From positions 1-36,958 of the forward strand of contig JAZTXA010000146.1 of the NCBI GenBank assembly GCA_045636245.1: a stretch of 36,958 nt of DNA, read 5' to 3'. The translations under genes were made by a program, and so were the position numbers. The notes beneath the pieces are model-generated. The model was not told the origin of the DNA, did no database searches, and was given only the letters and a program-made list of their open reading frames with translations. Shown here piece after piece: positions 9,353 to 28,394 of the stretch (its first letter is position 1; each line of letters opens with the position of its first letter). Source of the stretch: Eubacteriales bacterium (GTDB lineage Bacteria > Bacillota > Clostridia > Oscillospirales > CAG-272).

Positions 9353-9371
9353 ATTGTGCAAATTGCACAAT
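9353..9371. promoter_or_regulatory. 19-bp perfect palindrome (candidate operator)
   Basis: ATTGTGCAA-a-TTGCACAAT with 9-bp arms, in the AT-rich spacer between the GNAT gene and the ABC operon. Confidence 0.35.
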
Positions 9372-9699: not shown

Positions 9700-9728
9700 T
9701 TGACAACTGTGCGAATATATGTTATTAT
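9700..9728 (+). promoter_or_regulatory. Sigma-A-type promoter of the seven-gene ABC operon
   Basis: TTGACA (9700-9705), a 17-nt spacer, then TATTAT (9723-9728). Confidence 0.55.
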
Positions 9729-9740
9729 TATTTATAAATA

Positions 9741-9754
9741 TGAAATCGGTTAAA
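9741..9754 (+). promoter_or_regulatory. Candidate cre (CcpA) site
   Basis: TGAAATCGGTTAAA fits TGWAANCGNTNWCA except for position 13. It lies just downstream of the predicted -10. Confidence 0.35.
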
Positions 9755-9842
9755 TGGAGAATCGCTCGGATTGTGTCGGTTTTTTGTTTATACCTGCAAG
9801 TTTTTACTTGTTTTCAGTTAATTTTCACAGGAGGAACACCCA

Positions 9843-12800
9843 ATGAGAAAATCAAAATTGTCAAGAGCTTTGATTGTTTTTCTCGCCCTGTTGACGGCCA
9901 TATCGCCCGTGGGCATCAGTGCAGCGGAAGGTACATCCACTACGACAAGTATTGAAGATGTACGTGAGTTGCTTGAAGCACAGACGTATTATGACTATCT
10001 CCAGGAGAACAACAACCTCGGAATTACCGATGGCGAGGGTTCTGTAACCGTTAAGGCGGCAGAAGGCTTCACTTTCGAAAAGGATGAGGAATACGGTAAG
10101 GAGGACGATATTGCGAAGGTCGTGACCGACCCTGACGGCGAAAAGGGCGATGTCCTTTACGTTCCGCAGACGGGTACGGTTTCATGGAATATATCGATTC
10201 CCAAGACCGGTTATTACATTGTTAAGCTTACGTACAGACCCGTTGAAAACGATTCCGGCTCTGCGAACACTTCTACTATTGAACGCGTCCTCAGAATAGA
10301 CGGCAAGGTTCCCTTTAAGGAAGCCAACTATTTTGAAATGACACGTGCATTTAAAGATGTTTACACAGAACAGGATGAAAACGGAAGTCCTGCGTTCAAG
10401 CTTGACTTCAACGGCAACGACAAGAAGCCCGAGAAGAAGCAGGTTTATATGTGGAGCGAATACAGCCTTTGCGATTCCGCAGGCTTCCACGTAGATCCGT
10501 TTAAGTTCGTTTTTGAGGCTGGTGAACATACCATCGCCTTGGAAGCTACGATGAACGACATGTATCTGTATGATATCACGGTTGAAAAAGCGGAAACGCG
10601 TATTTCATACGAAAAATACGTTGCACAGTATGCGAACCTTCCCGCGGTCGATTCGTCGGTTGCGTATAAGATCCAGGCAGAGTACCCCATACATGCTTCC
10701 GATCTTACAATATACGCTCTCAACGACAGAACATCGCCTATAACAGAGCCGCAGGATCCTGCAAAGCAGAAGCTGAACACTATCGGCGGAAGCAAATGGC
10801 AGAACATCGGTCAGTGGATAGAATGGACGATTCCCGCATCCGCAATAACACAGTCGGGACTTTACAACATAATCCCCCGTTATCTGCAGAACACATTGGC
10901 AGGTCTTTACGTTTCAAGACGTATATTCATTAACGGCGAGATACCGTTTGAAGAAGCAAGTTACTTGCAGTTCAACTATGCCGATGACTGGGCAACAGCT
11001 CCCCTCAACAACGGTGAGGAAGAGTTCAAGTTCTATCTTGAGGCAAACAAAGAATACACAATCCGACTTGAAGTAGTTTACGGTAATTTGTCAGATGCGC
11101 TTCGCCGTTGCGAAACATCGCTGACAAACATGAACGAAATATATAACTCCATATTGAGAATTACAGGTCCTACACCTGACGAAAATATGGACTACGGTTT
11201 CGCAGAACAGATATACGACACGATCATTCTCATGCAGGAAACAAGAGATGAGCTTCAGTCGATTGTTGATATGTTCCTTGAAATCTCGGAAGGTAAATCC
11301 GCAGAGAACATAGCAACACTTGAAAAGATTATATTTATCCTTAATAAGATGTGTACAGATGAGGATGAGATCGCGAAGAACCTTGAAAACCTCAAGGTAA
11401 ACTCCGGTACGCTCGGTACATGGATAATGAACACTAAGCTTCAGCCTCTTACACTTGACTATTTGCTCGTTCAGGCTGCAGATGCAGAGGTTCCCGAAGC
11501 AAATGCGACATTCTGGCAGAGCCTTTGGTTTGAAATCAGTTCATTTTTCCAGAGCTTCTTCACAGACTATAACTCACTCGGTGCATCTGAGCAGATCGAT
11601 GAAGAAAACGTAGTTGAAGTCTGGATCGCAACGAGCCGTGACGAAGCGCAGGTTATGCGTGAGCTTGTTGACAAGGACTGTCCCGTAACTGTAAACCTTA
11701 AGCTTGTTGCAGGCGGTACGCTTCTTCCCGCGACACTTGCGGGAACAGGTCCCGATATTTCATTGGCAACAGGTCAGTCTGACGTTATCAACTACGCTAT
11801 CCGTAGTGCGATTGAACCGTTGTCACAGTTTGATGACTACTTTGATTATGTTGGTAACACAAACCGTTTCAATCCTGAAACGCTTGTAGGTTTGAGACTT
11901 CAGAATCCCGAAGTTACAGATGAAAACGATCCTCATTACTATGACTATTACGGTGTTCCGGAACGTCTTGGCTTCGTTATGATGTTCTACCGTAAGGACA
12001 TCTTTGCAGAGCTTGATATCGAAGTTCCGAGAACATGGGATGACCTTTATGAGATCGTTCCCGACCTTCAGACAAACTACCGTGATGTCGGTATGGCATC
12101 CAGCCTTGGCGGTCTTCAGATATTTATGTATCAGCTTGATGAAGACCTCTACAAGGAAAACGGTATGAGAATCAATATAGATTCCAATACGTCACTCGAT
12201 TGCTTCAAGAAGCTTTGTGACCTCTTCACATCTTATAACTTCCCCAGAGTATATGACCTTGCAACATACTTCAGAATGGGTGAAATGCCCATCGCTGTTG
12301 CGGATTATCTTACATACAACCACTTCTCGATCTATGCTACGGAAATCAAGGGCTTGTGGGAATTCGTTCCGCTTCCCGGTACGATAGATCCCGAAACAGG
12401 TGAGCTTAACAACTCCGTTCCTTGTTCTGTTTCGGCAGTTATTCTTATGGCTGACGAAAACAGATCCGAAAAGGTAAGAAACGATGCTTGGGAATTCATC
12501 AAGTGGTGGACAGATGCTCCTGCACAGAGTGAATATGCAAGACAGTATGAGGCGCTGATCGGTATGGCTGCTAAGTACAACACAGCTAACATGGAAGCGC
12601 TCAGAAGTATGCCTTGGACATCTTCCGAAATGAAGAACCTTGAGGCACAGTTCCAGAACCTTAAAGGTACTCCTGAATATCCCGGCGGTTACATCATAAC
12701 ACGTTACGTTGACTTTGCATTCCTTGATGCTTACAACAACGGTACTGATCCCGTTGATGCACTGCTTGACAATGTTGTTAATATCAACAGTGAGCTTTCA

Positions 12801-12857
12801 AGAAAGAGACAGGAATTCGGTCTGCCGATATACGAGGAAGTATACGGAAATGAATAA
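9843..12857 (+). CDS. Giant extracellular solute-binding protein: signal peptide, two CBM-like beta-sandwich modules, a helical linker and a family-1 ABC substrate-binding domain
   Basis: 1004 aa. The signal peptide MRKSKLSRALIVFLALLTAISPVGISAAEG has no lipobox Cys. There is an internal duplication: GTVSWNISIPKTGYYIVKLTY...RIDGKVPFKEANYF...FKFVFEAGEHTIALEA versus GQWIEWTIP...SGLYNIIPRY...FINGEIPFEEASYL...FKFYLEANKEYTIRLEV. The C-terminal roughly 420 aa is SBP-like (VEVWIATSRDE, GTGPDISL, TWDDLYEIVPDL, AWEFIKWW). Confidence 0.75.
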   Translation: MRKSKLSRALIVFLALLTAISPVGISAAEGTSTTTSIEDVRELLEAQTYYDYLQENNNLGITDGEGSVTVKAAEGFTFEKDEEYGKEDDIAKVVTDPDGEKGDVLYVPQTGTVSWNISIPKTGYYIVKLTYRPVENDSGSANTSTIERVLRIDGKVPFKEANYFEMTRAFKDVYTEQDENGSPAFKLDFNGNDKKPEKKQVYMWSEYSLCDSAGFHVDPFKFVFEAGEHTIALEATMNDMYLYDITVEKAETRISYEKYVAQYANLPAVDSSVAYKIQAEYPIHASDLTIYALNDRTSPITEPQDPAKQKLNTIGGSKWQNIGQWIEWTIPASAITQSGLYNIIPRYLQNTLAGLYVSRRIFINGEIPFEEASYLQFNYADDWATAPLNNGEEEFKFYLEANKEYTIRLEVVYGNLSDALRRCETSLTNMNEIYNSILRITGPTPDENMDYGFAEQIYDTIILMQETRDELQSIVDMFLEISEGKSAENIATLEKIIFILNKMCTDEDEIAKNLENLKVNSGTLGTWIMNTKLQPLTLDYLLVQAADAEVPEANATFWQSLWFEISSFFQSFFTDYNSLGASEQIDEENVVEVWIATSRDEAQVMRELVDKDCPVTVNLKLVAGGTLLPATLAGTGPDISLATGQSDVINYAIRSAIEPLSQFDDYFDYVGNTNRFNPETLVGLRLQNPEVTDENDPHYYDYYGVPERLGFVMMFYRKDIFAELDIEVPRTWDDLYEIVPDLQTNYRDVGMASSLGGLQIFMYQLDEDLYKENGMRINIDSNTSLDCFKKLCDLFTSYNFPRVYDLATYFRMGEMPIAVADYLTYNHFSIYATEIKGLWEFVPLPGTIDPETGELNNSVPCSVSAVILMADENRSEKVRNDAWEFIKWWTDAPAQSEYARQYEALIGMAAKYNTANMEALRSMPWTSSEMKNLEAQFQNLKGTPEYPGGYIITRYVDFAFLDAYNNGTDPVDALLDNVVNINSELSRKRQEFGLPIYEEVYGNE

Positions 12858-12956
12858 ACCGTTGTCACACCGCCCGGTCCTCGGCGGCTCGGCGATGTGA
12901 TGATATAATAGAAAAAAGATATTCATTATATAATTCTAATATAGGAGAGTACACAC

Positions 12957-13916
12957 ATGTCACAAAATACGGCAGTTAAAACCGAGAGTGTAAAGCCGGT
13001 ATCGCGTAAAGATATGTCGAAATTGCAGTGGACATGGAAAGAAATGAAGAAACACAAAATGGGCTATGTAATGATTGCTCCGTTCTTCATTCTGTTCTTT
13101 ATCTTTACTGTGGTTCCCGTTCTTTTGTCGCTGGTGCTCAGCTTTACGTCCTTCAACTTGCTTGAATGGCCTAAATGGTTGGGTTTTGACAACTACTTAA
13201 GATTATTCCTTGATGACGATATATTCCTTACAGCAGTTAAGAATACACTTATATTCGCTATTGTTACAGGTCCTGTATCGTACATAATGTCACTTTTCGT
13301 TGCGTGGTTTATCAATGAGCTTTCACCGAAGGTAAGAGCTTTGGTAACACTTATATTCTACGCACCGAGTATATCGGGTGCGATGTATTCAATCTTTGCG
13401 ATCTTCTTCTCCTCCGACCGTTACGGATACGTTAACGCAATTCTCATTTCACTCAATATCAGAACAGAACCGATACAGTTCTTCCAGGATGCAGCATACG
13501 TTATGCCTTTGTGTATAGTTGTTGCGCTCTGGACATCGCTTGGTGTTACGTTCCTTTCGTTTATCGCCGGTCTTCAGACGATTGATAACAGCCTTTATGA
13601 AGCAGGCGCGATTGACGGTATACGTAACAGATGGCAGGAGCTTTGGTATATCACGCTTCCCACGATGCGTCCTCAGCTTTTGTTCGGTGCCGTTATGGCT
13701 ATCACGGGCGCATTCGGCTTCGGCGGTATAGTTACCGCTTTGGCAGGCTTCCCGTCTGTTGACTACTGCGCACACACGATCATGCACCACCTTGAAGACT
13801 ACGGCGGTCAGCGTTTCGAGGTTGGTTATTCATCTGCAATTGCAACGATATTGTTCTTGATGATGATCGGTTCAAATATGCTTATTCAGAAATTACTCTC
13901 GAAGGTGGGCGAATAA
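12957..13916 (+). CDS. Carbohydrate ABC transporter permease (MalF/UgpA-like), pair 1
   Basis: 319 aa with 6 TM segments. EAA loop LYEAGAIDGIRNRWQELWYITLP. Confidence 0.9.
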   Translation: MSQNTAVKTESVKPVSRKDMSKLQWTWKEMKKHKMGYVMIAPFFILFFIFTVVPVLLSLVLSFTSFNLLEWPKWLGFDNYLRLFLDDDIFLTAVKNTLIFAIVTGPVSYIMSLFVAWFINELSPKVRALVTLIFYAPSISGAMYSIFAIFFSSDRYGYVNAILISLNIRTEPIQFFQDAAYVMPLCIVVALWTSLGVTFLSFIAGLQTIDNSLYEAGAIDGIRNRWQELWYITLPTMRPQLLFGAVMAITGAFGFGGIVTALAGFPSVDYCAHTIMHHLEDYGGQRFEVGYSSAIATILFLMMIGSNMLIQKLLSKVGE

Positions 13917-13917
13917 T

Positions 13918-14793
13918 ATGGCTAAGAAGTTAAGAGTTCGTAATCATAAAGTCGTCCTCAACCGCTCCGCCGGCGGTGACGCGGGTATCACATTAATGCT
14001 TATCATCCTCGGCGCGATGATGTTTTTGCCCATGTACTTTGCGGTAATGCAGTCGTTCAAGCCTCTTGATGAGCTTTGGATATTCCCTCCGAAATTCTAC
14101 GTTATCAACCCCACGCTTAAAAACTACTCCGACCTGTTCAAGTTGATGAGTACATCTTGGGTTCCTTTCTCCCGTTACATATTCAACACCGTTCTTATTA
14201 CGGTTTGCGGTACATTCGGTAACCTGGCACTTGGTTCTCTTGCAGCTTATGCGCTTGCAAAGATCCCGTTCCCGGGCAGAAACGGTATGTTCAAGATGGT
14301 CGTCCTCTCCCTCATGTTCGTGTCTACGATCACGGGTGTTGCGAACTTCATCACAATGAGATTCCTCGGACTTATCGACAACATTTTGGCGATAATTATC
14401 CCTGCATTCTGCTCAACTCTTGGTCTTTACCTTATGAAGCAGTTTATGGAATCTTCAGTATCTGACCAGGTTCTTGAATCTGCACGTCTTGACGGCGCAG
14501 GTGAATTTAAAGTATTCTGGACAATAGCAATGCCGATGGTTAAGCCCGCTTGGCTTACACTTATCGTGTACTCCTTCCAGGGACTCTGGAACACAGGTTC
14601 TTCTATCTATATTCAGAGTGAACAGTGGAAGACATTCAACTATGCTATTAACCAGATTTTGTCGGCAGGTATTGTCCGTGCCGGCGCAAGTACGGCGGCG
14701 ATGGTTATCATGATGATCGTCCCCGTTACGGTATTTGTCATCACACAGAGTAACATTATTGAAACGATGGGTACATCGGGTATGAAGGATTAA
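13918..14793 (+). CDS. Carbohydrate ABC transporter permease (MalG/UgpE-like), pair 1
   Basis: 291 aa. EAA loop LESARLDGAGEFKVFWTIAMP. The gap to the upstream gene is 1 nt. Confidence 0.9.
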   Translation: MAKKLRVRNHKVVLNRSAGGDAGITLMLIILGAMMFLPMYFAVMQSFKPLDELWIFPPKFYVINPTLKNYSDLFKLMSTSWVPFSRYIFNTVLITVCGTFGNLALGSLAAYALAKIPFPGRNGMFKMVVLSLMFVSTITGVANFITMRFLGLIDNILAIIIPAFCSTLGLYLMKQFMESSVSDQVLESARLDGAGEFKVFWTIAMPMVKPAWLTLIVYSFQGLWNTGSSIYIQSEQWKTFNYAINQILSAGIVRAGASTAAMVIMMIVPVTVFVITQSNIIETMGTSGMKD

Positions 14794-14802
14794 GGAGGAA
14801 AT

Positions 14803-16953
14803 ATGAAAAAAATACTTTTCAGAACACTTACTGTCCTTTTAGGTGTACTTACGGTGCTTTCGCCTATCACGGCGTCTGCGTATTATTCTTATCAGACATA
14901 TACCTATTCACTTGAAGGGTACCCGATGAATTCTCCCGACGCATACGTTCCGTCGGAGATCGTCGACAGTGATTCTATGGGACTTGTCGTTGACATTGAC
15001 GACCCCAAGGATATTACGGTAGACAGCGATAATAATGTGTATATCGCAGATGCTACAAATCACAGAATCGTTGTTCTTAACAACCGCTTTAAGCAGAGAT
15101 TTATAATCGATGAGTTTGTTAACGAACACGGCGTAAAAGATGCGCTTACAAACCCCAACGGTGTGTTTGTTACAGACGAAAAAATTTATGTTGCCGATAC
15201 GGACAACAGCCGTATTGTTGTGTTCGACAAGGAAGGCGAATTTCTTGAGATAATCGGCAAGCCTATTTCAAAGGAAATCAGTGTTGATGACCTTTACAGA
15301 CCTATTGCACTTGCAGTTGATGCCGCGGGCCGTATGTACATTGTTTCTTCAACGACATACAGAGGTATTATTGCAATCAACAAGGAAGGTAACTTCCAGG
15401 GCTTTATAGGTGCACAGAAATCCTCCCTCAGTGCGTGGGAGATCTTCTGGAGAAAGTTCCAGACAGAGGAACAGAGAAAATACTCCGATACAGTCGTATC
15501 AACTGAGTATAACAATATAACCATCGACGATATGGGACTTATTTACGTTACCACATCCTCCATCGACGAAGGTGCACAGCAGAACGCAATTAAAAGTAAG
15601 GATAAATCCGGTGACTACGCTCCTGTCAAGAAGCTTAACACAGCCGGTGACGAGATACTTGACCGTAACGGCTTCTGGCCTCCGTCAGGTGAAGTAGAGG
15701 TCAATGATCAGAATATGACCACAAGCTCATCGTCAATTACAGGTCCTTCCAAGATCATTGACGTTGCACTTGGTCCGGAAGGTACATGGAGCATCATCGA
15801 CGAAAAGAGAAACAAGGTCTTCACATATGATGAAGAAGGACGTTTGCTTTTCGTATTCGGTGACCAGGGTACACAGCTCGGTAACCTTCAGAGCATTCAG
15901 GCTATCACCTATATGGGCGATGATATGTTGCTTCTCGACAAGACTGCTGATAATATCACAGTTATGAAGCGTACCGACTACGGTGATACACTTATCAATG
16001 CTATCAAGAATCAGCGTGAGCGCCGCTATGACGAGGCTGAAGCTGACTGGCTTGAAATTTTGAAGCGTAACAATAACTTTGATGCAGCTTATGTAGGACT
16101 TGGCAGAGCGTACTACCGTGACGGTAAGTATGAAGATGCTATGGATATGTATAAGTTTGCATACGATACTGAGAACTATTCAACGGCGTTTAAGTATTAC
16201 AGACAGGAATGGGTTGCAAAATATGCCCTTGTTGTTCCGATAGTTGTGGTGGTTATCGCAATTGCTGTATATTACTTCTTCACCTATGCCGGAAAAAAGA
16301 ACAAAGAGGTTGCGACAAGACCCGACGGTTCAAGAACCTTCTGGGAAGAGATTCTCTACGGTATGCATGTAATAATGCACCCGTTTGATGGTTTCTGGGA
16401 TTTGAAATACGAAAGACGAGGTTCTGTAAGAGGCGCTATCGTATACATTATATTGGCAATAGCGGCCTTCACATACAACGGTATCGGTTCTGCATACTTG
16501 TTCAATCCTCAGGGCGAATATATAAGCGTATTCGGTCAGATCATTTCGATCCTTGTTCCGCTTTTCCTGTGGTGTCTTGCAAACTGGTGTCTTACAACGC
16601 TGTTTGAAGGTGAGGGAAGCTTTAAAGATATCTTCATCGCATCTTCTTATGCGCTTGCACCTATACCGCTTTTGATGATACCCGCAACACTTTTGACAAA
16701 CATATTCACACTTAACGAATCGCAGATCATCACACTTCTCACATCCATTATGTGGATTTGGGTAGGTTTGCTTATATTCTTCGGTTCGATGATAACACAC
16801 GACTATTCACTCGGAAAGAACCTTATAATCAGTATCAGTACAATAGTTGGTATGGCGGCAATCATGTTTATTGCATTGTTGTTCTCCAGCTTGATGTCCA
16901 AGATCATAAGCTTTATCACGAGTATCGTGGTCGAAATTTCGTACAGAATGTAG
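14803..16953 (+). CDS. Signal peptide + NHL-repeat beta-propeller + TPR-like segment + C-terminal Yip1-type polytopic membrane domain
   Basis: 716 aa. Signal peptide ...LSPITASA. NHL-type blades: VYIADATNHRIVVLN, IYVADTDNSRIVVFDKEGEF, MYIVSSTTYRGIIAINKEGNF and KVFTYDEEGRLLFVFG. TPR-like segment: YDEAEADWLEILKRNNNFDAAYVGLGRAYYRDGKYEDAMDMY. TM segment ALVVPIVVVVIAIAVYYFF, then a K/R-rich loop and about 5 further TM segments (Yip1-like). Confidence 0.65.
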   Translation: MKKILFRTLTVLLGVLTVLSPITASAYYSYQTYTYSLEGYPMNSPDAYVPSEIVDSDSMGLVVDIDDPKDITVDSDNNVYIADATNHRIVVLNNRFKQRFIIDEFVNEHGVKDALTNPNGVFVTDEKIYVADTDNSRIVVFDKEGEFLEIIGKPISKEISVDDLYRPIALAVDAAGRMYIVSSTTYRGIIAINKEGNFQGFIGAQKSSLSAWEIFWRKFQTEEQRKYSDTVVSTEYNNITIDDMGLIYVTTSSIDEGAQQNAIKSKDKSGDYAPVKKLNTAGDEILDRNGFWPPSGEVEVNDQNMTTSSSSITGPSKIIDVALGPEGTWSIIDEKRNKVFTYDEEGRLLFVFGDQGTQLGNLQSIQAITYMGDDMLLLDKTADNITVMKRTDYGDTLINAIKNQRERRYDEAEADWLEILKRNNNFDAAYVGLGRAYYRDGKYEDAMDMYKFAYDTENYSTAFKYYRQEWVAKYALVVPIVVVVIAIAVYYFFTYAGKKNKEVATRPDGSRTFWEEILYGMHVIMHPFDGFWDLKYERRGSVRGAIVYIILAIAAFTYNGIGSAYLFNPQGEYISVFGQIISILVPLFLWCLANWCLTTLFEGEGSFKDIFIASSYALAPIPLLMIPATLLTNIFTLNESQIITLLTSIMWIWVGLLIFFGSMITHDYSLGKNLIISISTIVGMAAIMFIALLFSSLMSKIISFITSIVVEISYRM

Positions 16954-16970
16954 TAAGGAGGTAAATTATA

Positions 16971-19900
16971 ATGGCTTTGAAAAAACTTTTATCTATGCTC
17001 CTTGCTATACTCATGGTAGTAGGTACACTCACAGCTTCTTTTGCGGTTACGATATATGCGGACGAAGAGGAAGACACACAGACGGGTGAGACCGAAACCG
17101 AAGGCGAGGAAGAAGAGGAAGACTCCGGTAATATCGACTATACAAGAGTTGAGTACGATTCACCGGAAGATAAACTCAAATCAATGACTCTCCGTGTTCA
17201 GAACAACAACTATGAGCTTTATTCTTTCGCAAGAACGGGTGAAGTTGCTGTTCGTGACAGAAGATCGGGACAGATACTTTTCTCAAACCCCTATGACCTT
17301 GGCTCAACCACAGGTTCTGCGGATACAAAAGAAATGCTTCTGTCACAGGTAATCGTTGAATTTACAAACGGTTCCAAAAACCAGACATACTACAGCTATA
17401 AGGAAGCGGCTCTCCGTGACCAGATAATCGTTAAGAATATTCAGAACGGTTTGAGAGTTGAGTATGCAATAGGACGTACGGAAACAAGAAAGCTTGTTCC
17501 GCGTCAGATCACAAAAGAAAGCTTTGAAACAAATATTATTGCAAAGCTTAAAGAAGCAGGTGTTTCCAACTGGCTTTTGAACAAGTTCACAGCTTACTAT
17601 CTGCTTAAAGACCCCACAGCAGCGGGTGTCACACAGACAACTCTTAACGCGATGTATAACCAGTGGCCTATCACAAAGAAGTATGCCATCTACGTGCTTT
17701 CCAACGATACAAAGGACAGAGAGTACAACTGGATTGAAGAGCAGATCAAAAAATACTGCCCTGAATACACATACGAAAAGCTTGACGAAGACCACGATCT
17801 CGTTGAGTACAGCGTTACAGACACAGCTCCCCCCTTGTTCCGTCTTTCTATTGAGTATACGCTTGACGAACAGGGACTTACCGCAAGACTTGCGGCAAAC
17901 GGTATCCGTTTCAACGAGGCCAACTATAAGCTGAAGAAGCTTACTATCCTGCCTTATTTCGGCGCAGGTAACAGTAAGGATAACGAAGGCTACACATTTA
18001 TTCCTGACGGAAGCGGTACGCTGACAAGATTCGAAGACGTTGATACACAGCTTTCACTCAGTGCGAAAATGTACGGTTCCGACTTTGCATACCACACAGA
18101 TGATCCTCAGCACCGTCAGGCGATGAGACTTCCTGTATTCGGTATTGTGGAAAATTATGTCGAATCGAATACATACAGAGTAAATGTTCCGCTCAACAAG
18201 TATTATTACGCAGACGGCACGGAAATAACAAGATATATTTCCGAAAATGCTGACAAGGGTTGGTTCAACGTATATCCCGAAAACGGTGTATTCTATGACA
18301 AAGACGGAAAAGCTGCTCACACAATGAAGAACGGCGAATATCCCGAAGATATGGAATATATCGACGCATACGGAAATCTTATCAGCACAAAGTCTGTCAC
18401 AGAAACCTCAACATATGAGGAAGACAGAGGATATTTTGCTATCCTTCTTGAAGGTGACGCACTTGCTGAAATTTCCACAAACCACGGCGGTGTTCTCCAT
18501 GACTACAGCTCTGTTGCAACATCGTTCTACCCCCGTCCTACCGACTCGTATAACCTTGCTGATGCAACAAGTGTCGGCGCAAATGCGATGTGGACGGTAA
18601 CATCAAAGCGTAGATACACAGGCAGCTACATAATCAGATACACAATGCTTACAGATGAAGCAAAAGCGGCTGATTATAATGCTTATCTTGAAGATCCCGA
18701 AGGCTACAGAGATAATCTTATTTCAGGTCTTGTCCCTGATGCTGAAGGAAATGTTGACACATCATCACTCTTCATTCCCGATGTTAAGGTTGATAATTAT
18801 AAATATTATCCCGCATCGTATATGGGTATGGTAAATGTCTGCAGAGATTATCTTGAAGGTGAAGGAATCCTTACAAGACTTAAGGCAGAAGATGTAAAAG
18901 ACGATATTCCCCTTTGTATCGAAACAATGGGTGTTATCAAATCTACAGATAAAATTTTGAGTATTCCCGTAGAAGTCAAAGTACCTCTTACAACATTTGG
19001 CGATGTCAAGACTATGTACGGTATGTTGGCTGAAAAGGACATCACAAATGTCAACTTCAAGCTTACGGGCTATGCAAACGGCGGTGTTACATCTACTGTT
19101 CCCAACAAAGTTAAGTGGGAAAAGAAAGTAGGCGGTGCTAGCGGATTCGAGGATCTTATGGCGTTCGCTGAAGAAAAGGATATTGGTATATATCCTGAAT
19201 TTGAATTCTCTTATTTGCAGAGTGTTTCGCTCTTTGACGGCTTCAACTACAAGAAGCATGCAGTTCAGACAATGGACGGCAGATACCCGTCACAGCGTGA
19301 ATATAACCCTGCATACCAGGAATTCTATAAGACGGGCTTCAACCCCATTTCTCCTTCTGTTTTCGAATATTTCTATGACAAAATGTCAAAAGATCTTCTT
19401 GAAACAAAGCCCACAGGTATTTCCGTTTCAACTCTTGGTTCGGATCTTAACTCCGACTTTAACGAGGACGATCCTTACAACAGAGAAGACAGCAAGGAAT
19501 TTGTAAAAGATCTGCTTGCAAAGATGCAGAACGATTTCGGCAAAGTAATGGTAAGCGGCGGTAACTCCTTTGTTCTCCCGTATACAGATTACATTCTCAA
19601 TGTACCGCTTGATTCCAGCCAATACCTGAAATCAAGTAACGCAATACCTTTCGTGGGTATGGTTCTCCACGGATATGTAAACTTTACAGGTTCTGCCCTT
19701 AATATGGCAGGTGACTTGGACTACGAACTTTTGAAGGCAATTGAAAACGGTTCTTCGATGTATTTCGTACTTTGTTATCAGAATACGAACAAACTCAAGG
19801 AAGACGTTACACTTCAGAAGTACTATTCTGTAAACTTCGATACATGGCTTGAAGGTCTCGCTGAAAGCTATCACAAGCTCAACGGTGCTATAAGCGATGT

Positions 19901-20387
19901 TCAGGATAAGCTCATAATCGATCACGAATTTATCTCCGGCGTGCGTGTTCTTACAGAAGAAGAATATCAGCAGGCAGTTGCAGATAAGCTTCGTGCAGAG
20001 GAAGAATCAAAGAAGGAAGAAACGGAGGCACCCGAAACAGAAGCTCCTGTTGATTCCGAAACAGAAGCACCTGTTGATTCAGATGCTCCCGTTGACAGTG
20101 ATTCCTCTGTTGGAACGGATGCTCCTGTAGAAGATACTGAAACAGACGCTCCCGCAGAAGACGCTCCCGCAGAAGATGATGCTGAAGAAGATAAGGAAGA
20201 TGAAAAACTTTCCATCGAAGAACAGATCGCAGCAGAAAACGTTATTGACAATGGCAAGATCGTTAAGGTAACTTATGAAGGCGGTAAGGTATTCATACTT
20301 AACTACAACAACTTCAAAGTTTCCGTTGACGGTGTTGAGATCGAAGCTCTCGGCTTCCACACATATACAGAAGGAGGAGAAGGCTGA
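16971..20387 (+). CDS. Large secreted or anchored acidic protein of unknown function (possibly DUF5696-type; putative glycan-active)
   Basis: 1138 aa. N-terminal hydrophobic segment LLSMLLAILMVVGTLTASFAV is followed by DEEEDTQTGETETEGEEEEED. A globular core of roughly 900 aa has no motif I can assign. The C-terminal acidic/Pro tandem-repeat linker (ETEAPVDS etc.) is followed by a tail of about 60 aa. The DUF5696 label comes from memory of similar loci and is unverified. Confidence 0.45.
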   Translation: MALKKLLSMLLAILMVVGTLTASFAVTIYADEEEDTQTGETETEGEEEEEDSGNIDYTRVEYDSPEDKLKSMTLRVQNNNYELYSFARTGEVAVRDRRSGQILFSNPYDLGSTTGSADTKEMLLSQVIVEFTNGSKNQTYYSYKEAALRDQIIVKNIQNGLRVEYAIGRTETRKLVPRQITKESFETNIIAKLKEAGVSNWLLNKFTAYYLLKDPTAAGVTQTTLNAMYNQWPITKKYAIYVLSNDTKDREYNWIEEQIKKYCPEYTYEKLDEDHDLVEYSVTDTAPPLFRLSIEYTLDEQGLTARLAANGIRFNEANYKLKKLTILPYFGAGNSKDNEGYTFIPDGSGTLTRFEDVDTQLSLSAKMYGSDFAYHTDDPQHRQAMRLPVFGIVENYVESNTYRVNVPLNKYYYADGTEITRYISENADKGWFNVYPENGVFYDKDGKAAHTMKNGEYPEDMEYIDAYGNLISTKSVTETSTYEEDRGYFAILLEGDALAEISTNHGGVLHDYSSVATSFYPRPTDSYNLADATSVGANAMWTVTSKRRYTGSYIIRYTMLTDEAKAADYNAYLEDPEGYRDNLISGLVPDAEGNVDTSSLFIPDVKVDNYKYYPASYMGMVNVCRDYLEGEGILTRLKAEDVKDDIPLCIETMGVIKSTDKILSIPVEVKVPLTTFGDVKTMYGMLAEKDITNVNFKLTGYANGGVTSTVPNKVKWEKKVGGASGFEDLMAFAEEKDIGIYPEFEFSYLQSVSLFDGFNYKKHAVQTMDGRYPSQREYNPAYQEFYKTGFNPISPSVFEYFYDKMSKDLLETKPTGISVSTLGSDLNSDFNEDDPYNREDSKEFVKDLLAKMQNDFGKVMVSGGNSFVLPYTDYILNVPLDSSQYLKSSNAIPFVGMVLHGYVNFTGSALNMAGDLDYELLKAIENGSSMYFVLCYQNTNKLKEDVTLQKYYSVNFDTWLEGLAESYHKLNGAISDVQDKLIIDHEFISGVRVLTEEEYQQAVADKLRAEEESKKEETEAPETEAPVDSETEAPVDSDAPVDSDSSVGTDAPVEDTETDAPAEDAPAEDDAEEDKEDEKLSIEEQIAAENVIDNGKIVKVTYEGGKVFILNYNNFKVSVDGVEIEALGFHTYTEGGEG
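20035..20174 (+). repeat. In-frame tandem repeats encoding the acidic linker
   Basis: A 24-nt unit, GAAACAGAAGCTCCTGTTGATTCC (20035-20058), repeats at 20059-20082 with 2 mismatches, and a degenerate third unit follows at 20083-20106. A perfect 15-nt duplication, GACGCTCCCGCAGAA, lies at 20145-20159 and 20160-20174. Confidence 0.85.
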
Positions 20388-21361
20388 TGAATAATACTGC
20401 AAACGAAAAGCTTGTAAAAGCGGCTCCCAAGAAAAAACGCCGCATAGCTTCGCTTGATAAGAAGAAGGCAAGAGCAGGTTATATATTTGTACTTCCGTTT
20501 ATAATCGGTCTTGTGGCAATGTATTTGCCGATCATTTATGACTCCATTCTGTACAGCTTTACAAATATCAAGCACGGCGCAGACGGATATCAGCTGATGT
20601 TTGTCGGCCTTGAAAACTACCGTGACGCATTGTTCGTAGATACGACATACGTTCAGGTGCTTACAACAGGTGTCCAGCAGTTGTTCCTTGACATTCCCTG
20701 TATAGTAATATTCTCGCTGTTTATGGCTGTTCTTCTTAACCAGAAGATGATCGGCCGTGCGGCTTTCCGTGCAATTTTCTTTGTCCCCGTTGTCTTGTCA
20801 ACAGGTTTGGTTGCAAAGATCGACTCGGGCAACGAATTGCTTTCCTACATGCAGAATACCGATGAAGGTATCAGCACAGGTGCGCAAAGCACGGGCGTTT
20901 CGGAAATCGTTTCCGCAATGGACTTCAAATACTTGTTCTCAAGTATGAAAGTCGGTACTGAGCTTGTTGAATACGTTATAAGTGCTATCAACAACATTTA
21001 TAACATTGTCAACCGTTCCGGTGTTCAGATGCTTATCTTCCTTGCAGGTTTGCAGTCAATTTCCCCCGCTATTTATGAGTCGTGTGAAATTGAAGGCGCA
21101 TCTGCTTGGGAAACATTCTGGAAGATCACCTTCCCGATGATAAGCCCGATGATTCTGACAAATGCAGTTTATACGATCATTGACGCGTTTACATCTTCTA
21201 CAAATACGGTTATGTCTTATATCGATCAGGTATACAGCAAGACAGACGGTGACGTTCTTTCGTCAGCGATGGCTTGGATGTACTTCTTGATAGTAATTGC
21301 GATAATCGCCGCTGTGGTTGGTATTCTGTCAATGTACGTATTCTATCAGAGAAGAGATTAA
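20387..21361 (+). CDS. Carbohydrate ABC transporter permease (MalF-like), pair 2
   Basis: 324 aa. EAA loop IYESCEIEGASAWETFWKITFP. The start overlaps the upstream stop (TGATG). Confidence 0.9.
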   Translation: MNNTANEKLVKAAPKKKRRIASLDKKKARAGYIFVLPFIIGLVAMYLPIIYDSILYSFTNIKHGADGYQLMFVGLENYRDALFVDTTYVQVLTTGVQQLFLDIPCIVIFSLFMAVLLNQKMIGRAAFRAIFFVPVVLSTGLVAKIDSGNELLSYMQNTDEGISTGAQSTGVSEIVSAMDFKYLFSSMKVGTELVEYVISAINNIYNIVNRSGVQMLIFLAGLQSISPAIYESCEIEGASAWETFWKITFPMISPMILTNAVYTIIDAFTSSTNTVMSYIDQVYSKTDGDVLSSAMAWMYFLIVIAIIAAVVGILSMYVFYQRRD

Positions 21362-21375
21362 GGGGGTGTATGTAA

Positions 21376-22428
21376 ATGAATGCTGATGCAAGTGTAAAAA
21401 CAAAAAGAAAAGCAAAAGACACTGTAAAGGTTGATTTCGACAGAACCCCGTTCTGGCAGAGAATGAAGGCAAAGTATCTTTCACTTTACTTCCTCAAAAA
21501 GGTTGTTTGGGCATTATTCCGATACGTTTTGCTTATCGGTATATCGTATGTTATACTTTTCCCCTTCTTTGCAAAGATCGCTTCTTCGTTTATGTCGCCC
21601 GAGGACTTTGTCGATGCAACGGTTAAATTGATACCTAAGTATCCCACATTTGACCAGTATAAGTACATAGTTCTTGAGAACCATTATCTCAAAGCATTAA
21701 TGAACACAACGCTCCTTTCGTTGTCGTGTGCAGTATTCCAGACGTTTATATGTGCTATAATCGGTTATGGTTTTGCTAAATTCAAATTCAAGGGAAATGG
21801 TCTCTTGTTCGCGCTCGTTATATTCTCGATGGTCGTTCCTCACCAGACGCTCCAGCTTGCTATGTTTATGAAGTTCAGATACTTTGACGTTCTCGGTATC
21901 ATGAATTTGCTTGGTGGCGGCGTTTTCAAGGGTCTGAATATCACAGGCGGCGTAACATACTTCAATTTGACAAACCAATTCACACCGCTTATACTCCTCT
22001 CACTTACAGGATTTGCGTTTAAGAACGGTCTTTATATCTTTATGATGAGACAGTTCTATAAGGGTGTTCCCGATGAGCTTGAGGAATCCGCATATGTTGA
22101 CGGTTCGGGTGTTATGCGTACATTCTTCCAGATAATTATTCCGCTTTCCGTACCTATGATGATTACAATATTCTTGTTTGCGTTCTCATGGCAGTGGACA
22201 GACAGCTTCTACACAGGCTTGTTCTTCACGAAGACGGATATTTATATGATGAAGAGTATCGTCGCAATTCCTAAGTCGCTTGATATTACATTCGCTGCTT
22301 CAAACCTCTATAATGCTGCGATAAGAAATACTTGCGGACTTATGATAATCCTTCCCCTTGTTATCTTGTTCCTGTTCTGCCAGAGATATCTCATTCAGGG
22401 TATCGAGCGTTCAGGTATCACAGGCTAA
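21376..22428 (+). CDS. Carbohydrate ABC transporter permease (MalG-like), pair 2
   Basis: 350 aa. EAA loop LEESAYVDGSGVMRTFFQIIIP. Confidence 0.85.
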   Translation: MNADASVKTKRKAKDTVKVDFDRTPFWQRMKAKYLSLYFLKKVVWALFRYVLLIGISYVILFPFFAKIASSFMSPEDFVDATVKLIPKYPTFDQYKYIVLENHYLKALMNTTLLSLSCAVFQTFICAIIGYGFAKFKFKGNGLLFALVIFSMVVPHQTLQLAMFMKFRYFDVLGIMNLLGGGVFKGLNITGGVTYFNLTNQFTPLILLSLTGFAFKNGLYIFMMRQFYKGVPDELEESAYVDGSGVMRTFFQIIIPLSVPMMITIFLFAFSWQWTDSFYTGLFFTKTDIYMMKSIVAIPKSLDITFAASNLYNAAIRNTCGLMIILPLVILFLFCQRYLIQGIERSGITG

Positions 22429-22454
22429 TAACGGTGTACACAAACTGATAATTT

Positions 22455-22488
22455 CAAGACTGACTCAACGAGTCAGTCTTGATTTTTT
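22455..22488 (+). terminator. Intrinsic terminator of the ABC operon
   Basis: CAAGACTGACTC-aac-GAGTCAGTCTTG (12-bp stem) followed by ATTTTTT. Confidence 0.85.
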
Positions 22489-22513
22489 ATTTGTAACATT
22501 TCTTCGTAACTTC

Positions 22514-24865: not shown

Positions 24866-25020
24866 CGCACAAGGTGCGGTTAAATCCGAGCAAGCTCAGA
24901 TGAAATCTGCTTCGCAGATGAAATTAAATCCACCAGCGCCCGTCGCCGCGGCGGATTTCACACGCTACATGTGTATTTCATATTGCGAAGCAATATTTAG
25001 CGCGCCCGTAAGGGTGGATT
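24866..25020. repeat. Array of about 7 short GC-rich tri/tetraloop hairpins separated by A/T-rich GATTTCA/GAAAT-like spacers
   Basis: Hairpins seen: CGCAC-aag-GTGCG; GAGCaaGCTC; ATCTGC-ttc-GCAGAT; AAATCCaCC...GGcGGATTT; ACAC...GTGT; ATATTGC-gaa-GCAATAT; CGCCC-gtaa-GGGTG. Confidence 0.5.
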
Positions 25021-25026
25021 TAGTTG

Positions 25027-25059: not shown

Positions 25060-25146
25060 TGGTGCCGGTGGCGGGGGTCGAACCCGCACGGTATCGCTAC
25101 CACTGGATTTTGAGTCCAGCACGTCTGCCAATTCCATCACACCGGC
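25060..25146 (-). tRNA. tRNA-Leu (anticodon CAA), class II with long variable arm, encoded CCA
   Basis: The reverse complement reads GCCGGTGTGATGGAATTGGCAGACGTGCTGGACTCAAAATCCAGTGGTAGCGATACCGTGCGGGTTCGACCCCCGCCACCGGCACCA. Acceptor stem GCCGGTG/CACCGGC, anticodon loop CTCAAAA, T-arm GCGGG-TTCGACC-CCCGC. Confidence 0.95.
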
Positions 25147-25281: not shown

Positions 25282-25300
25282 TAAAATTTTGTGGTACAAT
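25272..25300 (+). promoter_or_regulatory. Promoter of nadABC-niaR
   Basis: TTGACA (25272-25277), a 17-nt spacer, then TACAAT (25295-25300). Confidence 0.6.
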
Positions 25301-25342
25301 ATCGACAATTTAAATCATTTTATCCGAAATGGAAAGAAAATT

Positions 25343-26254
25343 ATGACAAGTGATATTTTAAATGAGATAATAGATCTCAAAAAAGAAAAAAATGCGGTGA
25401 TACTTGCGCATTACTATGCACCCGATGAAATACAGTCGGTTGCAGATTACGTAGGAGATTCGTTCTACCTTGCCAAAACAGCGGAAAAGATTCCGGAAAA
25501 TCTTATCGTTTTCTGCGGTGTCGGTTTTATGGCGGAGAGTGTGAAGATAATAAATCCCGAAAAAACAGTTCTTGTGCCCGATATAAGCGCTGACTGTGCG
25601 ATGGCGCATATGGCATCGGTGGAAAAGATTAAAGAGTTAAGAGCAAAATACGATGACTTGGCTGTCGTATGCTACATAAATTCAACTGCTGAACTTAAGT
25701 GCCACAGTGACATTTGCGTTACTTCATCAAATGCGGTGAAGATAGTAAAGAATTTACCGAACAAAAATATTTTCTTTATCCCTGACAAAAATCTCGGCGG
25801 ATATGTTGCAGAACAAGTACCGGAAAAAAATATAATTTTAAATGACGGCTACTGTCCTGTACATGCCGCACTTTCGGTTGATTCTCTGAAGAAAACGATA
25901 GAAGCACATCCAAATGCACAGGTTTTGACACACCCCGAATGTGAAAGGGAAATACTTGAGCTTTCCGATTACATCGGAAGCACTGCAGATATATTAAAGT
26001 ATGCCTATGAAAGTGAGTGCAAAGAATTTATCATTTGTACCGAGGACGGTGTAGAATATCCTTTGCAGCAAAACAACCCCGGAAAGAAATTTTACTTTGC
26101 GGGTGAAGATTTCAAATGTATGGATATGAAGCTGAATACACCCGAAAAGCTGTTGTATGTTTTAAAAGCGGGCGAAAACGAAATAAAGGTAGACGAAACG
26201 AAAAGGGAAAAAGCACTTTTGCCCTTAAAGCGGATGCTTGAAAGTGCAAAATAA
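25343..26254 (+). CDS. nadA: Quinolinate synthase
   Basis: ORF trimmed to MTSDILNEIIDLKKEKNAVILAHYY. 303 aa. The three conserved Cys contexts are present (FCGVGFMAE, YINSTAE, CPVH). Confidence 0.9.
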   Translation: MTSDILNEIIDLKKEKNAVILAHYYAPDEIQSVADYVGDSFYLAKTAEKIPENLIVFCGVGFMAESVKIINPEKTVLVPDISADCAMAHMASVEKIKELRAKYDDLAVVCYINSTAELKCHSDICVTSSNAVKIVKNLPNKNIFFIPDKNLGGYVAEQVPEKNIILNDGYCPVHAALSVDSLKKTIEAHPNAQVLTHPECEREILELSDYIGSTADILKYAYESECKEFIICTEDGVEYPLQQNNPGKKFYFAGEDFKCMDMKLNTPEKLLYVLKAGENEIKVDETKREKALLPLKRMLESAK

Positions 26255-26264
26255 CGGAGAAAAT

Positions 26265-27539
26265 ATGAAAGCCGATATTGTAATTGTCGGATGCGGGGTA
26301 AGCGGTCTGTACTTTGCCCTGAATCTTCCGAGAGACAAAAAAATACTAATGATAACGAAGGATGATGAAGAAAACAGCGATTCCTTTCTGGCGCAAGGCG
26401 GTATATGCGTTCTTAAAGACAAGGACGATTATGATTCGTTTTTCGAAGATACGATGCGTGCAGGTCATTATGAAAACAGGAAAGAATCTGTTGACATAAT
26501 GATACGATCCTCACGCGGTGTTATAAATGACCTTATTTCATACGGCGTTGATTTTGAAAAGGAAAACGGTGAGCTTGCCTACACAAAAGAAGGCGCCCAC
26601 ACCAAAAACAGAATACTTTTCCATAAGGATGAAACGGGTAAGGAGATAACAAAAAATCTTTTAAAGGCGGTCAAAAAGCTTGACAATGTCACGCTCAAAG
26701 AACACTCTGCAATGGTCGATATAATCGAAAATGACGGCGAATGTGCAGGTATTGTTTACCGCGATGAAAAAGGGAATTATAAAACTGTTTACGCAGATTA
26801 CACAATGCTTGCAACAGGCGGTATAGGAGGACTTTTTGAACATTCCACAAACTTCCCCCACTTGACGGGAGATGCCTTGGCAATTGCGCTCAAGCACGGT
26901 GTTAAGCTTAAAAATATAGACTATATACAGATACACCCCACTACGCTTTATACAAAGAAAAAGAACGGACGGGATTTCCTTATTTCCGAATCCGTCAGAG
27001 GCGAGGGTGCAGTGCTTTTGAATGAAAAGGGCGAGCGCTTTGTAAATGAGCTTTTACCGAGAGATGTTGTTGCAAATGCGATATTTGAGGAAATGGCAAA
27101 GACGGGGGCTGAACACGTGTGGCTTTCAATGGCTCCGATACCGAAAGAGGAAATAGAAAGCCATTTTCCGAATATTTGCGCAAAATGCCTTGAAGAAGGG
27201 TATGATGTAACAAAGGAGCCTATACCCGTTGTACCCGCACAGCATTACTTTATGGGCGGTATATACGTTGATAAATACAGCAAAACATCGATGAACAGGC
27301 TGTATTCATCCGGTGAAACGGCTTGTAACGGTGTACACGGTAAAAACAGACTTGCAAGCAATTCGCTTCTTGAAAGTCTTGTGTTTGCAAAACGTGCCGC
27401 ACAGAGGATAACTAAAACATATACAAAGGCTGAACATGTAAAGCAGATAATTGACTTTTCCGTTTATGACGGCTGTGATGAAGAATACAGAAAAACCGTA
27501 CTTGATGCGATAGAAAGTGAGAAGAAAAAACATGAATGA
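26265..27539 (+). CDS. nadB: L-aspartate oxidase
   Basis: Trimmed to MKADIVIVGCGVSGLY (FAD GxGxxG). AQGGI, RGEGAVL and HYFMGGI motifs. GGAG RBS. Confidence 0.9.
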   Translation: MKADIVIVGCGVSGLYFALNLPRDKKILMITKDDEENSDSFLAQGGICVLKDKDDYDSFFEDTMRAGHYENRKESVDIMIRSSRGVINDLISYGVDFEKENGELAYTKEGAHTKNRILFHKDETGKEITKNLLKAVKKLDNVTLKEHSAMVDIIENDGECAGIVYRDEKGNYKTVYADYTMLATGGIGGLFEHSTNFPHLTGDALAIALKHGVKLKNIDYIQIHPTTLYTKKKNGRDFLISESVRGEGAVLLNEKGERFVNELLPRDVVANAIFEEMAKTGAEHVWLSMAPIPKEEIESHFPNICAKCLEEGYDVTKEPIPVVPAQHYFMGGIYVDKYSKTSMNRLYSSGETACNGVHGKNRLASNSLLESLVFAKRAAQRITKTYTKAEHVKQIIDFSVYDGCDEEYRKTVLDAIESEKKKHE

Positions 27540-28383: not shown

Positions 28384-28394
28384 GGGGAATGTGA

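Follow-up and report, generated by a model that had tools for sequence, protein, structure and literature searches.

Glycan harvesting is far less understood in the gut Bacillota than in the Bacteroidota with their Sus systems. Here, we describe a cassette of seven genes in a contig of 36,958 nucleotides (nt) (JAZTXA010000146.1, assembly GCA_045636245.1) from a Eubacteriales bacterium of the clostridial lineage CAG-272; this whole stretch of DNA is hereafter referred to as the window. The seven open reading frames (ORFs) all lie on the + strand between positions 9843 and 22428, between a promoter (9700-9728) and an intrinsic terminator. They encode, in this order, a giant secreted solute-binding protein, the permeases A1 and B1, a membrane protein with an NHL propeller, a TPR region and a Yip1 domain, a large secreted protein of the family DUF5696, and the permeases A2 and B2. 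The locus raises the question of what kind of machine is built from two ATP-binding cassette (ABC)-type translocators, a single recognisable binding protein and two partners that are not ABC components. An earlier interpretation of this DNA, hereafter the sequence-only reading, gave coordinates and junctions for seven same-strand genes, all of which were confirmed here, and proposed that they form a capture, processing and import machine for a polymeric substrate, probably a glycan. From the gene content, the conservation as a unit, and the domain and fold assignments, we infer an enzyme activity, a physical complex, roles for the two translocators and a glycan substrate. We consider it fairly probable that the seven gene products form a machine for the capture, trimming and import of a glycan at the cell surface, with a MalK-type ATPase acting in trans and the Yip1 protein as assembly scaffold. 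The cassette is probably a new style of Gram-positive glycan-harvesting machine.

Conservation of the cassette

The GTDB collection, with one genome per species, was scanned for relatives of the DUF5696 protein. At least 493 relatives were found, and the best 80 loci were kept with 10-kb flanks; ORFs were called in all 80 loci and classified against the proteins of the window. Complete seven-gene sets are present in 61 of the 80 loci. The order binding protein, A1, B1, NHL-TPR-Yip1, DUF5696, A2 and B2, on one strand, is found in every sufficiently long contig among these loci, and it is kept down to a DUF5696 identity of 39%. The sequence-only reading had suggested such a census, and would have been abandoned if the two non-ABC proteins did not occur with ABC permeases in other genomes; in the sufficiently long contigs of the best 80 loci, they always stand with such permeases. 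The flanks consist of differing housekeeping genes in differing genomes, Aminotran_5, GNAT, NifU and AlaRS being the commonest families. Since the flanks vary while the seven genes stay, the seven genes are a unit. A conserved neighbour that would name the substrate or provide the ATPase was sought and rejected, as no flank family occurs in more than 14 of the 80 loci. Close homologues of the DUF5696 protein are found by the hundreds in Clostridia genomes assembled from gut and rumen metagenomes, and an exhaustive search gave 4,259 clusters (50% identity, E ≤ 1e-3), 1,626 of them with E ≤ 1e-30.

Distant versions of the cassette were found by a tblastn search of 72,556 plasmid and chromid records. 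DUF5696 is present in two of them, at 25-28% identity, and both carry the whole cassette. The two records are from Butyrivibrio fibrisolvens D1 and Paenibacillus cellulosilyticus KACC 14175. In reverse searches of the same records, with the full-length NHL-Yip1 protein as one query and residues 1-600 of the binding protein as the other, only these two matched in each case, and elsewhere the NHL-Yip1 query gave partial propeller matches only. Among the GTDB loci, conservation is graded: identity to the window in the distant subset is 62-71% for the permeases, 56% for the Yip1 protein and about 43% for the two large secreted proteins. In P. cellulosilyticus, the binding-protein gene is preceded on its strand, at a distance of 37 nt, by the gene of a UgpC/MalK-type ATPase with the domains ABC_tran, OB_MalK and TOBE_2; in this one lineage the cassette has its ATPase in cis. 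In B. fibrisolvens, a two-component pair, a histidine kinase with a response regulator whose DNA-binding domain is of the AraC type, is encoded 5' of the cassette, and the gene of a GH43 glycoside hydrolase, which has no signal peptide, precedes and overlaps the binding-protein gene. Two ordinary binding proteins of 501 and 536 amino acids, with the lipoboxes AAGC|S and ISGC|G, follow the second permease pair. A metagenome scan from the Butyrivibrio protein found three close relatives only, and a 74%-identical metagenome relative repeats the Butyrivibrio layout in ORF lengths and order. The absence of an ATPase and a regulator, claimed earlier, is thus true of the lineage of the window, where neither an ABC ATPase nor a sugar regulator is encoded across the 37 kb, but not of the cassette overall, given the Paenibacillus ATPase and the Butyrivibrio regulator.

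The seven genes could also be chance neighbours, that is, two unrelated ABC importers and two unrelated surface proteins. The permease pairs are only about 24% identical to one another, and the junction after the binding-protein gene is a loose one of 99 nt, as chance neighbourhood would allow. We regard this explanation as extremely improbable, because all 61 complete loci, and those from two other orders or classes, have the same arrangement, the partners co-occur perfectly in the plasmid records, and the flanks vary where the seven genes do not.

Permeases and ATPase

Permease A1 (12957-13916, + strand, 319 amino acids) is UgpA/MalF-like, has the EAA loop EAGAIDG...ITLP and is about 70% identical in distant loci, and its partner B1 (13918-14793, +, 291 amino acids) is UgpE/MalG-like with the loop ESARLDG...IAMP. 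The second pair is composed of A2 (20387-21361, +, 324 amino acids), UgpA/MalF-like with the loop ESCEIEG...ITFP, and B2 (21376-22428, +, 350 amino acids), UgpE/MalG-like with the loop ESAYVDG...IIIP. The start of the A2 gene overlaps the stop codon of the DUF5696 gene. All four permeases pass the Pfam cut-off for BPD_transp_1, and their best NCBIfam relatives are UgpA/MalF and UgpE/MalG, with scores below the equivalog cut-offs. The coupling loop E-[AS]-x-x-x-[DE]-G...[IL]-x-[LFMI]-P is present in all four, and therefore both pairs would couple to an ATPase. The Pfam matches, the NCBIfam relatives and the loops bear out the earlier view of four CUT1-type permeases, with intact EAA loops, that make two pairs. 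The pairs differ in that A2 has a polar insertion of about 70 residues between transmembrane helices 3 and 4, predicted to face outward, and the A2B2 subunits have longer loops, also predicted to be outward-facing.

Among the features expected of a CUT1 importer, the BPD_transp_1 permeases with EAA loops and the MalE-type binding protein are present, while a MalK/UgpC-type ATPase is lacking within the 37-kb window. By analogy, a MalK/UgpC/MsmX-type ATPase is presumed to be supplied in trans in the genome of the window, as shared ATPases that energise many sugar importers are established in Bacillota (PMC7658222, PMC5730181). In locus L034, a UgpC/MalK-type ATPase gene lies 1.4 kb upstream of the cassette. 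The cassette resembles CUT1 importers, such as MalEFGK2, UgpBAEC, and the shared MsmX/MsmK systems of Bacillus or Streptococcus, in its MalF/UgpA- and MalG/UgpE-like permeases, EAA loops, MalE-fold lobe and MalK/UgpC-type ATPase, which is in cis in Paenibacillus and presumably in trans here. It differs from them in having two permease pairs and one binding protein in one operon, a binding protein of about 1000 amino acids with CBM-like sandwiches (CBM, carbohydrate-binding module), a helical bundle and no lipid anchor, and two obligatory non-ABC partners.

Solute-binding protein

The first gene of the cassette (9843-12857, +) encodes a secreted solute-binding protein of 1004 amino acids, which was assigned by Pfam, an AlphaFold2 model, Foldseek and its homologues. 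In the model (pLDDT, the predicted local distance difference test, of 80.8), the signal peptide is followed by two β-sandwiches at residues ~60-250 and 275-412, a four-helix bundle at 416-532, and a MalE-type lobe at 537-1000. Pfam SBP_bac_8 matches residues 626-906, in the C-terminal 40% of the protein, with 41.8 bits (cut-off 27). When the binding lobe was compared with known structures using Foldseek, MalE and the binding proteins for cyclodextrin, for sophoro-oligosaccharide and for lacto-N-biose/galacto-N-biose (LNB/GNB) were found, with template-modelling (TM) scores of 0.7-0.8. Pfam gives no match to a CBM family in the 1004-residue protein of the window. In homologues, the sandwich region matches Golvesin_C in 16 of 30 and CBM_35 in 10 of 30, and at the family level the N-terminal sandwiches are CBM35/Golvesin-like. 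The CBM-fused binding protein of the sequence-only reading thus holds at the family level, by way of the homologues, and not by Pfam for the protein itself. The signal peptide of the protein is of type I, and neither a lipobox nor a conserved Cys is found in any lineage. Export signals had been noted earlier on the three non-permease products, and all three do carry ordinary Sec signal peptides.

DUF5696 protein

The fifth gene (16971-20387, +) encodes a protein of 1138 amino acids in which the sequence-only reading could place no motif. It belongs to the family DUF5696 (PF18952, E = 5.5e-144). The protein can be described as composed of a signal peptide, N-terminal domains, a (β/α)8 barrel at residues ~615-990, an acidic linker at 1021-1078, and a C-terminal β mini-domain at 1095-1133. 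Its AlphaFold2 model, computed with 32 sequences, has a pLDDT of 74.5 and a predicted TM-score (pTM) of 0.69. A fold search of such a model had been proposed earlier, and its outcome, a glycosidase fold, is in favour of a glycan substrate. The top match of Foldseek against the Protein Data Bank (PDB) is the GH129 3,6-anhydro-D-galactosidase of Zobellia (5opq, E = 4e-23, TM 0.69), which aligns over the whole chain. The second is the GH129 α-N-acetylgalactosaminidase NagBb of Bifidobacterium (5wzr, E = 1e-16, TM 0.68), followed by GH101 endo-α-N-acetylgalactosaminidases (E ~1e-11) and then by GH31 and GH36 enzymes. Sequence identity to these fold matches is 9-10%. The model thus suggests that DUF5696 has a GH129/GH101-like α-glycosidase fold with an N-terminal β domain, a barrel and a C-terminal β domain. 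By sequence, it is not a member of GH129 or GH101. It shares the whole-chain fold (TM 0.68-0.69) with the GH129/GH101 α-N-acetylgalactosaminidases and with the 3,6-anhydro-D-galactosidase ZgGH129, and differs from them in its low identity, in having no Pfam or profile match to them, and in its large insertions.

Six acidic residues, E295, D346 (in the motif PDGSG), D371, D756, D829 and E925, stay invariant in the alignment extended by the two distant members, as do R625, R838, H900 and H985. D829, in the motif LNSDF, directly follows barrel strand 4, the position of the nucleophile in these clans; D756 and E925 are alternatives. D881, after strand 6, is conserved in close relatives and not in the distant members. 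The small C-terminal β domain is universal, and the acidic linker is a lineage-specific insertion.

The linker is made of imperfect E-T-E-A-P-V-D-S repeats (window 20031-20204). Terminator-like matches on the minus strand at 20175-20149 and 20068-20043 are artefacts, because they are produced by the DNA of these repeats. The length of the protein ranges from about 760 to 2,500 amino acids among the 150 best clusters, and representatives of the wider family reach 2,545. The DUF5696 proteins of Butyrivibrio and Paenibacillus are both shorter than that of the window. In seven of the loci (L059, L062, L063, L064, L067, L069 and L076), DUF5696 genes of 1800-2040 amino acids have a C-terminal extension of 800-1000 residues. 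Pfam gave DUF5696 alone, with no extra domains, in the five variants of 1400-2000 amino acids that were scanned, which include L059, L062 and L076.

NHL-TPR-Yip1 protein

The fourth gene (14803-16953, +) encodes a protein of 716 amino acids that comprises an NHL propeller, a TPR region, one transmembrane helix and a Yip1 domain with five transmembrane helices, as seen by Pfam, hydropathy and a conservation map. Pfam confirms the fusion of these parts that was proposed in the sequence-only reading. The Yip1 match (PF04893, 54.5 bits, cut-off 28.6) covers profile positions 2-171 of 173, and five hydrophobic segments are found between residues 540 and 694. The NHL match has 50 bits (cut-off 20) and is accompanied by matches below threshold to SGL and DUF5128, families of six-bladed propellers. 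According to hydropathy and the positive-inside rule, the propeller and the TPR region are predicted to be extracellular, followed by one helix, a cytoplasmic loop and the five Yip1 helices. In B. fibrisolvens, the propeller, TPR and first helix (498 amino acids) and the five-helix Yip1 part (206 amino acids) are encoded by separate genes with a 22-nt overlap, split exactly in this cytoplasmic loop, and a Rosetta-stone link between the two parts is therefore provided. The NHL-Yip1 gene is also found as two overlapping ORFs in locus L028 (7841-9972), and the binding-protein gene in locus L040 (2272-5507), both from metagenome-assembled genomes; these may be assembly frameshifts, or true splits as in Butyrivibrio.

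The invariant positions of the Yip1 protein, compared over 64 sequences with the two distant ones among them, are densest in the motifs HPFDGFWDLK.E.RGS (residues 526-541), NWC.T.L..GEG...D (594-609) and H666/Y668. All of these motifs are located in predicted cytoplasmic loops, at window positions 16378-16425, 16582-16629 and 16795-16806 (residues 665-668). The motifs are polar and rich in His, Asp, Glu and Cys, and they would look more like a site for binding or for metal than like a passive anchor in the membrane.

One bacterial Yip1 protein has been characterised: YknW, a member of the Yip1 family, modulates the assembly of the ABC transporter YknXYZ (PMC4887032). By analogy, the Yip1 protein of the cassette is most likely an assembly scaffold; we read it so because of the YknW precedent and because both large secreted proteins lack anchors of the lipid or wall type. 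The cassette is similar to YknWXYZ of Bacillus in that a Yip1-domain membrane protein, which in the case of YknW is needed for assembly, is encoded with an ABC transporter. However, YknYZ is an exporter of the MacB type and not a type I importer, and YknW has neither an NHL propeller nor TPR. This precedent also bears on whether the cassette works outward, with the permease pairs aiding the export or assembly of a surface glycan or of the large secreted proteins. Such a role would fit large anchorless secreted proteins and a Yip1 partner, YknWXYZ, that is itself an exporter. It is very unlikely, as type I importers are defined by BPD_transp_1 permeases with EAA loops together with a MalE-type binding protein and an ATPase of the MalK/UgpC type, and the ordinary Sec signal peptides of all three secreted proteins also speak against it.

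Proposed mechanism and alternatives

The proposed import of a glycan would proceed as follows. One mRNA would be made from a strong, apparently unregulated promoter, and the Sec route would export three products: the giant binding protein, DUF5696, and, of the Yip1 membrane protein, the NHL-TPR part. The two CBM35-like sandwiches of the binding protein would hold a polymer or a large oligosaccharide, which DUF5696, with the fold of retaining α-glycosidases, may cut at the surface. The MalE-type lobe would then pass an oligosaccharide to the translocator A1B1. A2B2 could take a second product, supplied by this binding protein as well or handed over directly by the DUF5696/NHL module, whose genes lie just upstream; the A2 gene is expected to be translationally coupled to DUF5696. 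Both translocators would be powered by a MalK/UgpC/MsmX-type ATPase encoded elsewhere in the genome. The Yip1 domain, like YknW in Bacillus, would organise the membrane complex, and the external propeller and TPR may hold the two anchorless secreted proteins. A glycan substrate is supported by the DUF5696 fold, the MalE-type lobe, the CBM35-like sandwiches, and the co-transcribed GH43 and AraC-type two-component regulator of Butyrivibrio, and on these four grounds the glycan machine proposed by the sequence-only reading finds support.

A more elaborate form of this mechanism is put forward tentatively, as a possibility that we rate below the mechanism itself. The seven proteins and a borrowed ATPase might form an obligate supercomplex, a Gram-positive counterpart of the Bacteroidota utilisome, in which a Yip1-anchored NHL-TPR scaffold holds the anchorless binding protein and the founder of a new glycoside hydrolase family over twin translocators. 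A2B2 might be fed directly by the enzyme, with no classical binding protein in between, and the cytoplasmic Yip1 motifs (HPFDGFWDLK.E.RGS, NWC...GEG and THDY) might couple the scaffold to the ATPase or to the coupling helices of the permeases.

Several points weigh against the glycan importer, and the first of them concern the enzyme. No sequence link from DUF5696 to a glycosidase was found: phmmer and a profile of 32 sequences, searched against all PDB sequences, gave only chance matches, and in Pfam DUF5696 is the sole match, with no GH101 or GH129 model. Because neither the sequence nor the family profile finds a solved glycosidase, the link is one of fold only. No acid/base residue could be assigned in DUF5696, no invariant acid is found after barrel strand 5 or 6, and the loop 826-840, which carries the invariant D829 and R838, is modelled at pLDDT <50. 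The other points concern the locus. The gene-order census covers the 80 nearest relatives and two distant ones, out of a family of 4,259 clusters. A permease identity of 62-71% across distant genomes would fit a core cellular role too. The lineage of the window has no regulator and no cytoplasmic sugar-processing enzyme, its promoter looks constitutive and its neighbours are housekeeping genes, which is unusual for a nutrient-foraging locus. We know of no characterised precedent for one binding protein that serves two translocators.

The points on the enzyme bear on an alternative in which DUF5696 is not an enzyme but a glycosidase-derived binding or docking protein, the receptor of the second translocator as the binding protein is of the first. 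Symmetry is seen in the gene order, with [binding protein, A1, B1] beside [NHL-Yip1, DUF5696, A2, B2], and the DUF5696 stop overlaps the A2 start; a receptor would also need no assignable acid/base, no conservation of D881 in distant members and no sequence link to any glycoside hydrolase family. Yet six acids and R625, R838, H900 and H985 are invariant at 25% identity, including the Asp at the nucleophile position and PDGSG, a pattern more characteristic of active sites than of lectin surfaces, and Butyrivibrio retains DUF5696 even though it has two ordinary lipoprotein binding proteins after the second pair. A receptor role is thus rather doubtful.

The points on the locus bear on what is perhaps the most serious alternative, in which the same machine serves the bacterium's own envelope, recycling or remodelling its own wall-linked or secreted glycopolymer instead of foraging. 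It would explain why, in this lineage, the promoter looks constitutive and both a regulator and catabolic genes are lacking, why the neighbours are housekeeping genes, and why the permeases are so highly conserved. Some flanks also contain recurring wall-related genes, namely Amidase_3 (7 loci), VanY (7) and the phosphodiester glycosidase NAGPA (5), and L081 has a polysaccharide deacetylase. With no flank family in more than 14 of the 80 loci, however, such wall links are not conserved. Butyrivibrio is wired like a plant-glycan locus, with its AraC-type two-component system and cytoplasmic GH43, and foraging systems are where CBM35-like modules and MalE-type lobes are typically found. An envelope role is therefore unlikely, though it deserves more weight than the receptor.

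Transcription signals

The intergenic distances within the cassette are 99, 1, 9, 17, -1 (a TGATG overlap) and 14 nt, and each of the seven genes has a GGAGG-type ribosome-binding site 6-10 nt 5' of its ATG. From the spacing and the conservation, the seven genes would be carried by a single transcript. The promoter (9700-9728, +) is of the sigma-70 type with an extended -10 element (TTGACA, 17 nt, TG-n-TATTAT), matches 11 of 12 consensus positions plus the TG, and is the top-scoring match of the region. Promoter-like matches in this region occur at the level expected by chance (31 versus 29.2 ± 5.1), so that the consensus match in itself is weak proof, and the footprint carries the weight. In an alignment with six relatives, CTTGACA and TGTTATTAT are unchanged, while the sequence upstream of the -35 element is wholly diverged. 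The near-consensus promoter of the sequence-only reading is borne out by these invariant elements. A second promoter-like match of 11/12 (TTGACA-17-TATACT) is located inside permease B2, at 21967-21995 (+); it could be due to chance or drive the downstream Vut_1 transporter gene at 22668.

The promoter is followed by a 5' leader of about 115 nt (9729-9842, +), which is conserved in close relatives. A riboswitch or structured leader was rejected, as there is no Rfam match in the leader and its fold is not significant (z = -0.14). Control by CcpA was also rejected. The leader has ATGAAATCGGTTAAA at 9740, which matches the consensus of the catabolite-responsive element (cre) with one mismatch, but cre-like sites are not enriched across the loci: one is found within 250 nt upstream in 5 of the 61 loci, against a background of about 0.1 per 250 nt, and 3 of these 5 are one shared site in the near-identical L001-L003. 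A perfect 8-1-8 inverted repeat, TTGTGCAA-A-TTGCACAA (9354-9370), is found in a long AT-rich intergenic region, about 330 nt upstream of the cassette promoter. It lies between the cassette promoter and a divergent GNAT gene and may be an operator for either.

The gap between the binding-protein gene and the first permease gene is the sole loose junction in most loci (median 47 nt). In the window, a GC-rich stem-loop (12861-12904, +) stands just 3' of the binding-protein stop. The hairpin of the sequence-only reading is thus present, although its fold is not significant against shuffled sequences (region z = -1.3) and it has no U-tract; an internal terminator in the 99-nt gap was rejected on these grounds. 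The stem-loop is possibly an mRNA stabiliser or processing site that raises the stoichiometry of the binding protein. The cassette ends with an intrinsic terminator (22454-22492, +), composed of a 13-bp stem (22454-22482) with a 3-nt loop and the T-run TTTTTTATTT. It had been described earlier as a 12-bp stem at 22455-22488; the terminator is real, and the stem was computed to be one base pair longer.

Other features of the window

A glycine riboswitch aptamer (1571-1664, +, 63.7 bits, E = 4e-11) is located directly 5' of a gene of the sodium:alanine symporter family (1745-3295), which is plausibly a glycine-controlled amino-acid transporter. On the minus strand, a match to the Gut-1 RNA (52.4 bits, gathering score 50) adjoins a tRNA gene, at 24950-25026 and 25063-25146. 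An operon for NAD biosynthesis at 25289-28910 (+) consists of nadA, nadB and nadC-like genes, followed by a regulator of the NiaR type (HTH_11 and 3H domains).

Comparison with known systems and significance

The cassette would work as a CUT1 importer combined with a surface glycosidase, a principle shared with Gram-positive polysaccharide utilisation loci (gpPULs) and with the bifidobacterial route below. It is comparable to the gpPULs described in Roseburia and Eubacterium rectale (PMC5320581) in that an enzyme candidate and an ABC sugar transporter are found in one locus. It differs in being rigidly conserved across orders, whereas gpPULs are variable and species-specific. When the published minimum definition of a gpPUL (Sheridan et al. 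2016) is applied, the window has the transporter and the enzyme candidate, and it falls outside the definition because it has no regulator; none was found in the window or in the flanks of its relatives. The Butyrivibrio cassette has all three components if GH43 is counted. In the bifidobacterial route for mucin O-glycans, which combines the extracellular GH101 EngBF with the GL-BP ABC importer, a surface α-glycosidase of this fold likewise frees a sugar that a MalE-type protein delivers to an importer. In that route, however, the parts are encoded at separate loci, the binding protein is a lipoprotein and the enzyme is anchored to the wall, and neither a Yip1/NHL protein nor a second translocator is present. 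The likeness to the Sus-type 'utilisome' of Bacteroidota (SusCD with a surface enzyme and binding proteins) is a functional analogy only. There is no homology, and Sus systems are TonB-dependent and located in the outer membrane, while the cassette encodes an ABC importer of the cytoplasmic membrane.

Literature searches on DUF5696, on Yip1 with binding proteins, and on Yip1/NHL in Butyrivibrio or Paenibacillus gave nothing relevant, and neither Yip1 nor NHL is mentioned in a 2026 review of bacterial glycoside transporters. No description was found in the literature of twin translocators, a giant anchorless CBM-bearing binding protein and an obligatory Yip1-propeller partner. The sequence-only reading had held the non-ABC components to be uncharacterised and would have yielded to a published substrate or mechanism for the locus; no such publication was found, and the proteins of the window bear only the public names 'YIP1 family protein' and 'extracellular solute-binding protein'.

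If the proposed mechanism is true, DUF5696 would be a candidate new family of glycoside hydrolases, and the cassette would provide the first case of a Yip1 protein acting in an ABC importer and the first operon with two translocators and one giant, anchorless, CBM-bearing binding protein. Direct testing is feasible because the cultured hosts B. fibrisolvens D1 and P. cellulosilyticus KACC 14175 carry the cassette. Thousands of proteins from gut and rumen metagenomes, now called 'hypothetical' or 'YIP1 family', would then gain an annotation.

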